From Escherichia coli (GTDB taxonomy: Bacteria; Pseudomonadota; Gammaproteobacteria; Enterobacterales; Enterobacteriaceae): DNA of 64,000 nt. The notes under the pieces are model-generated. The model did no database searches. It was not told the DNA's origin and saw only the letters and a list, made by a program, of their open reading frames with translations. The position numbers and the translations under genes are program-made. Positions 28,445-29,756 of this stretch are shown here, piece by piece (positions within the stretch are counted from its first letter, which is position 1; every line of letters starts with the position of its first letter). The stretch lies in NCBI RefSeq assembly GCF_013315695.1, contig NZ_CP054353.1; one strand, 5' to 3'.

Positions 28445-28527
28445 TTTTTATACCTGTTGTTTTGGATATTTATACATCCCAATAAAGCATGTATGCCATA
28501 TCCATTTTATGATGAGTGAAAAGTTAG

Positions 28528-29722
28528 GGAAGGTGCGAATAAGCGGGGAAATTCTTCTCGGCTGACTCAGTCATTTCATTTCTTCATGTTTGAGCCGATT
28601 TTTTCTCCCGTAAATGCCTTGAATCAGCCTATTTAGACCGTTTCTTCGCCATTTAAGGCGTTATCCCCAGTTTTTAGTGAGATCTCTCCCACTGACGTAT
28701 CATTTGGTCCACCCGAAACAGGTTGGCCAGGGTGAATAACATCGCCAGTTGGTTATCGTTTTTCAGCAGCCCCTTGTATCTGGCTTTCACGAAGCCGAAC
28801 TGCCGCTTGATGATGCGAAACGGGTGCTCTACCTTGGCACGGATGCTGGCTTTCATGTATTCGATGTTGATGGCCGTTTTGTTCTTGCGCGGATGCTGCT
28901 TCAAGGTTTTTACCTTGCCGGGACGCTCGGCGATCAGCCAGTCCACATCCACCTCGGCCAGCTCCTCGCGCTGTGGCGCTCCTTGGTAGCCGGCATCGGC
29001 TGAGACAAATTGCTCCTCTCCATGAAGCAGATTACCCAGCTGATTGAGGTCATGCTCGTTGGCCGCGGTGGTGACTAGGCTGTGGGTCAGGCCACTCTTG
29101 GCATCGACACCAATGTGGGCCTTCATGCCAAAGTGCCACTGATTGCCTTTCTTGGTCTGATGCATCTCCGGATCGCGTTGCTGCTCTTTGTTCTTGGTAG
29201 AGCTGGGTGCCTCAATGATGGTGGCATCCACCAAAGTGCCTTGGGTCATCATGACGCCTGCTTCGGCCAGCCAGCGATTGATGGTCTTGAACAATTGACG
29301 GGCCAGTTGATGCTGCTCGAGCAGGTGGCGGAAATTCATGATGGTGGTGCGATCCGGCAGGGCGCTATCCAGGGATAATCGGGCAAACAGGCGCATGGAG
29401 GCGATTTCGTACAGGGCATCTTCCATGGCACCGTCGCTCAGGTTGTACCAATGCTGCATGCAGTGAATACGCAGCATGGTCTCCAGCGGATAGGGCCGTC
29501 GGCCATTGCCCGCCTTGGGATAAAACGGCTCGATGACAGCGGTCATATTCTGCCATGGCAGAATCTGCTCCATGCGGGAGAGGAAAATCTCTTTTCGGGT
29601 CTGACGGCGCTTAGTGCTGAATTCACTATCGGCGAAGGTGAGTTGATGGCTCATGATGTCCCTCTGGGATGCGCTCCGGATGAATATGATGATCTCATAT
29701 CAGGAACTTGTTCGCACCTTCC
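28528..29722 (-). mobile_element. IS5: IS5 insertion sequence, 1195 bp, with TTAG target duplication
   Basis: Terminal repeats GGAAGGTGCGAATAAG (28528) and GGAAGGTGCGAACAAG (revcomp, ending 29722); TTAG at 28524-28527 and 29723-29726. Confidence 0.95.
28674..29654 (-). CDS. insH: IS5 transposase InsH
   Basis: 326-aa translation [34 protein letters not shown]... recognised as IS5 transposase. Confidence 0.95.
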
Positions 29723-29756
29723 TTAGTTCAGGTAATAGTTTAATAAAATTAGATTC

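Follow-up and report, generated by a model that had tools for sequence, protein, structure and literature searches.

When an insertion sequence comes to lie between the first structural gene of an operon and all the others, the genes beyond it may be silenced, may be switched on or may still be reached by transcripts that cross the element. The locus considered here raises this question for a sugar operon of the phosphotransferase (PTS) type in Escherichia coli. In the stretch of 64,000 nucleotides that was analysed (the window, to which all coordinates refer), a mobile element separates the promoter and the EIIB gene from the genes of EIIC, EIIA, a porin and a phospho-beta-glucosidase. The answer depends on the identity of the element, on the state of the operon around it, on what is known of transcription through elements of this kind and on how the allele is distributed among other genomes.

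The element and its name

The element, its ends and the signals ahead of its transposase gene are placed as follows.

28528-29722, minus strand: complete IS5-family element of the ISKpn26 type, 1195 bp, recognized from its terminal inverted repeats, its full-length identity to other copies and its absence from E. coli MS 21-1
28528-28543, plus strand: terminal inverted repeat IRR, at the 3' end of the transposase gene, GGAAGGTGCGAATAAG
29707-29722, minus strand: terminal inverted repeat IRL, at the 5' end of the transposase gene, GGAAGGTGCGAACAAG
28524-28527: TTAG target-site duplication, copy on the bgcF side, seen once at the empty site of MS 21-1
29723-29726: TTAG target-site duplication, copy on the bgcE side, seen once at the empty site of MS 21-1
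28674-29654, minus strand: intact transposase gene (ins5A homologue), 326 aa, element positions 69-1049
29712-29717: −35 element GTGCGA of the weak ins5A promoter, within IRL, as defined for IS5 in PMC11894529
29689-29694: −10 element GATCAT of the ins5A promoter, the A equivalent to the transcription start site being at 29681, as defined in PMC11894529

The inverted repeats are 16 bp long with one mismatch between the two ends, and their 16-mers gave only these two matches in the 64-kb window, with 0 matches in shuffled controls. The transposase, encoded by the sole long ORF of the element, scores 366.8 bits (E=7e-110) against the NCBIfam profile NF033581 (transpos_IS5_4), for which the cutoff is 140, and the −35, −10 and start-site A of ins5A are conserved in this ISKpn26-type copy. 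The combination of a predicted DDE transposase, short terminal inverted repeats and a 4-bp duplication of the Py-T-A-Pu type identifies the element as an IS5-family insertion sequence. An ORF of 91 aa (29451-29726, plus strand) runs antisense to the transposase gene and exits through the inverted repeat, its stop codon being provided by the TAG within the duplicated target TTAG.

In the initial annotation the element was called IS5, a name that is borne by the NF033581 match and the inverted repeats at the level of the family, but that does not extend to IS5 proper. The identity to the K-12 IS5 copy is 94.6%, with 65 of the 1195 positions differing (63 substitutions and two single-base indels). 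These differences are concentrated in the third positions of the ORF and in the 5' untranslated region, and the 3'-terminal 183 bp, on the bgcF side, are free of them. Insertion sequences customarily share a name at about 95% nucleotide identity or more, and by this threshold the canonical K-12 element would be another named element, even if the length of 1195 bp, the inverted repeats, the −35/−10/start-site layout, the 3'-terminal 183 bp and a target fitting Py-T-A-Pu are common to both. Over its full 1195 bp the element is instead 100% identical to many copies on E. coli chromosomes and plasmids, to which PGAP attaches the label ‘IS5-like element ISKpn26 family transposase’. The ISKpn26 reference also carries a 326-aa ORF at positions 69-1049 (PMC8796155), along with inverted repeats of the IS5 type and a 4-bp duplication, the only discrepancy being its listed length of 1196 bp versus 1195 bp for the copy in the window. 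From the identical labelled copies, the 94.6% identity to the K-12 element and the position of the ORF, the precise name would therefore be ISKpn26, or ISKpn26-like, with ‘IS5’ applying to the family only. Elements of this name, which belong to the IS5 group of the IS5 family, are known for the disruption of mgrB in Klebsiella pneumoniae, whereas the present copy lies between two genes of a sugar operon and touches no resistance-related gene.

The host operon and the insertion site

The genes of the host operon and the region from which it is transcribed are the following, in the order of transcription after the divergent regulator.

30267-30965, plus strand: GntR-family regulator (bgcR), divergent from the operon; family match
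30069-30266: bgcR-bgcE divergent regulatory region, unchanged, identical to MS 21-1
29757-30068, minus strand: PTS EIIB of the lactose/cellobiose family (bgcE), first gene of the operon, intact; family match
27122-28444, minus strand: PTS EIIC (bgcF), ORF intact, now downstream of the insertion sequence; family match and length as in MS 21-1
26783-27100, minus strand: PTS EIIA (bgcI); family match
25054-26727, minus strand: LamB-family carbohydrate porin (bgcH); family match
23590-25035, minus strand: 6-phospho-beta-glucosidase, GH1 (bgcA); NF007154, 1030 bits

[quoted passage not shown] By gene content and position (between marB and eamA in the annotation of MS 21-1) the host operon is very probably this bgc beta-glucoside/cellobiose operon, the window copy differing from that of extraintestinal E. 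coli by the insertion sequence between bgcE and bgcF. The identification draws on the architecture and on the secondary citation in PMC3585215. All six bgc genes are full length, with lengths equal to those of MS 21-1, and bgcE, which still adjoins its promoter, is 100% identical to its MS 21-1 counterpart together with its upstream region, so that the element is the sole lesion that the sequence of the locus reveals. In 2009 Neelakanta, Sankar and Schnetz reportedly described bgc of extraintestinal E. coli as CRP-dependent and ‘cryptic’, and the wild-type promoter is said to be weak or cryptic. With such a CRP dependence a CRP-like site, TGTGATCAATGTACCA, predicted at 30137-30152 on the minus strand (8 of 10 positions matched), would be consistent. 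With regard to the porin (557 aa), LamB profiles match it only from residue 146, and its N-terminal extension of about 145 aa had no family match in the profile search.

For the insertion site itself, the empty site was rebuilt by joining the flanks with a single TTAG and was searched in 5426 complete E. coli genomes, and 24.6 kb of E. coli MS 21-1 were aligned to the window by BLAST. MS 21-1 is the closest IS-free relative, the one genome in which the empty-site query was matched at 100% identity, and it affords the comparison with a strain lacking the element that had been suggested at the outset. It is collinear with the window in blocks that are 99.93-99.97% identical, the identity across the two flanks being 99.94-99.97%; the blocks abutting the element end at window position 28527 and start at 29723, and their overlap in MS 21-1 is exactly TTAG. 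The single TTAG at the MS 21-1 junction establishes that the copies at the two edges of the element are a true target duplication, as first proposed, and the exactness of the overlap indicates that the element transposed cleanly, duplicating 4 bp of the target and rearranging nothing else. The target is one already on record, since the IS5 consensus is Py-T-A-Pu, and TTAG represents 3 of the 24 ISfinder cases (PMC5493358). The native bgcE-bgcF spacer, between the EIIB gene at 29757-30068 and the EIIC gene at 27122-28444, measures 113 nt, is 73% A+T and contains three Py-T-A-Pu tetranucleotides. In this IS-free spacer the insertion point is 30 nt past the IIB stop and 79 nt ahead of the IIC start, and the insertion adds 1199 bp between the promoter with bgcE and bgcF. 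Thus, the gene positions agree with the initial annotation as to the location of the element in the IIB-IIC spacer, the shared orientation of transposase and operon genes, all on the minus strand, and the separation of promoter and IIB from the IIC-IIA-porin-glucosidase genes. It was also considered whether the real target had been an attenuator or some other structured element of the native spacer, but this was discarded: the spacer folds with a z-score of only −1.8, and the imperfect hairpin GGATAT...ATATCC (28464-28503), which is without a U-tract and is retained between the element and bgcF, falls outside the insertion point.

Transcription across the element

With the transposase gene co-directional with the operon, transcripts from the bgc promoter would be expected to run through the element into bgcFIHA. 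Mechanistically, the configuration appears to resemble that of nmpC::IS5 of K-12, in which a host promoter, a host coding sequence and a co-directional IS5-type element follow each other in the same geometry; the differences are that IS5 lies there inside one gene, and here between two, and that the bgc promoter is reportedly weak and activator-dependent. [quoted passage not shown] For the remaining part of the path, the fucAO system is informative: lacZ or fucAO downstream of IS5 is expressed from transcripts that begin at the ins5A start site and traverse the entire element. With only the promoter, expression was 1225 units, about 15% above the strain with the operon and the complete IS, and with a terminator just inside IS5 it fell to the basal level (PMC11894529). 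These read-through experiments were performed with canonical IS5, from which the present copy differs at the 65 of 1195 positions given above, many of them in the 5' untranslated region before the transposase start.

The scans of the element and its surroundings point in the same direction. On the operon strand the terminator-like sites reduce to a single weak hairpin, which lies within the translated part of the transposase gene, and overall such sites are no more numerous than the shuffled expectation; a terminator in the 3' end of the element, considered as a candidate, was not predicted on this strand. The RNA from the transposase stop to the bgcF start is 229 nt long and rich in A but not in C (C 19%, G 20%), and the 3' end by which transcripts would leave the element is, over 183 bp, the same as in K-12 IS5. 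Sequestration of the ribosome-binding site of the transposase in the read-through RNA, as in IS10/IS50, was rejected, the predicted accessibility being practically the same in the read-through (0.51) and in the native (0.53) transcript. On the basis of the published experiments and of these terminator, RNA composition and ribosome-binding-site checks, the effect of the insertion would lie anywhere from near-neutral to partly polar, and the transposase gene would be transcribed together with the operon from the bgc promoter; to this reading a probability of about 0.6 may be assigned. If the wild-type bgc promoter is as weak or cryptic as described, the effect may be phenotypically invisible. 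The initial annotation had stated that insertions of this kind can be polar: a partly polar effect is indeed within expectation, and ‘polar’ is perhaps too strong a term, given that the published loss in IS5 read-through is about 15% or less.

The sequence of events would then be the following. An intact ISKpn26-type element would have transposed recently, and only in this strain, into the TTAG of the A+T-rich spacer, generating the usual duplication and no further rearrangement. With bgcE remaining under its unchanged BgcR/CRP-type promoter, transcripts from this promoter would pass bgcE and enter the element, where the transposase would be translated, and would then leave it at its 3' end and go on into bgcF-I-H-A. 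In this way the transposase of the inserted copy would join a sugar- and cAMP-controlled transcription unit. That transcripts read through, that the transposase comes under the bgc promoter and that activation is lacking are inferred from the published IS5 experiments and the scans described. By the same analogies the scheme could be taken further, to a functional operon with a single bgcE-transposase-bgcFIHA message, in which the transposase would be under BgcR, CRP-cAMP and low-temperature control and the inserted copy would act as the carbon-source-responsive main donor of the strain, in a manner comparable to nmpC::IS5 in K-12; this extended form is tentative and is regarded as rather unlikely.

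The alternative that fares best is a complete block, in which bgc transcription would not get past the element or the sequence immediately beyond it, owing to Rho-dependent termination or mRNA decay. Its consequence would be a dead operon, producing no EIIC, EIIA, porin or phospho-beta-glucosidase, as the first decay step of a dispensable locus, and both the block and this outcome are considered possible but doubtful. Many insertions in operons have proved strongly polar in classical genetics. In the present case, 1199 bp now lie between the promoter with bgcE and bgcF, including two newly introduced untranslated stretches, of 102 nt ahead of the transposase start and of 229 nt after its stop, which are the candidate places for a Rho-dependent termination that cannot be reliably predicted. 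A replacement promoter is not detectable, the ins5A promoter is nearly silent and the allele is private, as would be expected of a neutral or deleterious hit. However, canonical IS5 in the same orientation passes transcripts with a loss of about 15% or less (PMC11894529), and read-through RNA yields active transposase (PMC11677980), so that the ORF is translated and the RNA would be shielded from Rho. Furthermore, the operon strand is devoid of a convincing terminator, and the A-rich RNA that leads from the transposase stop to bgcF is unlike a good Rho loading site.

Far less probable is the opposite outcome, namely an activating insertion, in which the element would supply or create a promoter or enhancer, in the manner known for IS1 and IS5 at bgl, chb, glpFK and fucAO, leading to constitutive expression of bgcFIHA and to a selectable beta-glucoside-positive phenotype. 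The initial annotation had kept this outcome in view by analogy with bgl and chb. IS5 is documented to switch on silent operons, including a beta-glucoside one (PMC5493358, PMC11894529, PMC2753651), and in one evolution experiment genes with a chromosomal IS5 insertion upstream of them were expressed more strongly (PMC5526668). The 3'-terminal 183 bp beside bgcF equal those of K-12 IS5 and presumably take in the stretch linked to the activation of glpFK, which is named the IB region (PMC11894529).

The analogy fails, however, on the position of the element, which is downstream of the first structural gene. In bgl, glpFK, flhDC and fucAO activation was due to IS5 insertions upstream of, or in, the promoter region (PMC5493358, PMC2753651, PMC11894529), whereas the present element is inside the operon, 30 nt past the stop of its first gene, and the regulatory region at 30069-30266 is untouched. 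By its position it falls outside the class of activating insertions. Activation of chb/cel likewise maps upstream of the operon.

A promoter provided by the element itself is also hard to reconcile with the available information. The ins5A promoter is essentially inactive on its own (PMC11894529, PMC11677980), and outward expression from IS5 ends was absent or very weak in reporter constructs (PMC5526668). In the fucAO system, which shares with the present one the element family, a transposase directed toward the affected operon and transcription through the whole IS, the fusion promoter (Pfsn) depends on a CRP site that lies just beyond the 5' end of the element and has its centre at −61.5. 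At the corresponding position here, from −72 to −51, the sequence is A+T-rich with no TGTGA, and the sole CRP match with 7 of 10 positions is 113 nt upstream of the element. On the operon (minus) strand a consensus scan of 28300-30400, which includes the junction between the element and bgcF, found no sigma-70-like site, and accordingly no new, hybrid or fusion promoter directed into the downstream genes is predicted, with the reservation that weak or unusual promoters may escape a scan of this type. Even with a promoter at the junction, EIIB would stay on its weak native promoter, so that expression of only the genes beyond the element would not be expected to bring about PTS uptake, and the allele is present in no other genome searched. 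By taking into account both position and sequence, the insertion does not seem to be an activating one, and it would add no usable promoter for bgcFIHA. The IS5075 urease case was dropped as a comparator, the insertion sequence involved being of an unrelated family.

Prevalence of the allele and other insertions in the window

The uninterrupted spacer (at least 80% query coverage) was found in 2502 of the 5426 complete E. coli genomes, and the bgc locus is accessory, being present in 46% of them. In the same set a 300-bp query spanning the junction between element and flank, with a threshold of at least 80% coverage, was matched in none (0 of 5426), and the 34-mer GATGAGTGAAAAGTTAGGGAAGGTGCGAATAAGC, used for the exact junction, had no match in 100,044 species-representative genomes or among the contigs of a metagenome collection. 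Disruptions of any kind within 300 bp of the site concern at most 7 of the 2509 bgc-positive genomes, at least one of these being a deletion that removes IIB. The allele is therefore private to the source strain among the genomes searched, and the insertion is presumably recent, which fits the 100% identity of the element to other copies. The possibility that the real genome has no element here, and that a repeat was misplaced by the assembler, may draw on the absence of the junction from every other genome and metagenome searched and on the frequency with which insertion sequences cause misassembly, but it is hardly credible when a complete element is bounded by an exact 4-bp repeat of a target on record for IS5 and the flanks rejoin exactly to the MS 21-1 sequence, as a misjoin would not yield.

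The window contains further traces of mobile elements. A complete IS1 of 768 bp (459-1226), with typical IS1 ends and a 9-bp duplication (aaaactctt), lies between an autotransporter remnant and lsrK and is absent from MS 21-1, which is otherwise 99.8-99.96% identical. A second IS1 (46192-46959), which is oriented oppositely to the first and shares 99.9% identity with it, is flanked by the 9-bp duplication aaggagaaa in the tail-fibre region of a prophage and is also absent from MS 21-1. The two copies form an inverted pair 45 kb apart that brackets the whole lsr-mar-bgc region and could mediate its inversion. Besides them, the window has another IS-sized insert with respect to MS 21-1. These IS1 and IS-sized inserts point to a general IS activity in the lineage rather than to targeted selection at bgc. 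A prophage/IS region at 49599-56232 also differs from MS 21-1: the IS3-family element that it contains is inverted with respect to that strain, lacks the group II intron (ltrA) present there and contains in turn an insert of 1221 bp (51710-52930) that interrupts it, is of the size of IS30 and has an ORF of 383 aa. Elsewhere, 205 bp at 21784-21988 are missing from MS 21-1, the marC gene of which is annotated as frameshifted, the allele of the window being apparently intact, and lsrB of MS 21-1 (8931-9953, corresponding to about 9890-10910 of the window) carries an internal stop and is listed as a pseudogene in the annotation of that strain.

Both parts of the feature were already known, the element from catalogued copies and the operon from its description, so that the feature is real but ordinary. 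As one more insertion sequence in an accessory sugar operon, in a strain with several further private IS insertions within these 64 kb, it has little import beyond strain bookkeeping, with a practical value as a strain marker and as a caution for annotation, the operon being intact gene by gene and yet split. If read-through takes place as proposed, the locus would represent a second instance in nature in which an IS5-type transposase is driven by a host promoter, and a convenient natural test of the permeability of the element to the transcription of an operon. If, in addition, the operon is functional and the transposase is coupled to bgc control, the rate of transposition would follow the availability of beta-glucosides, or starvation.
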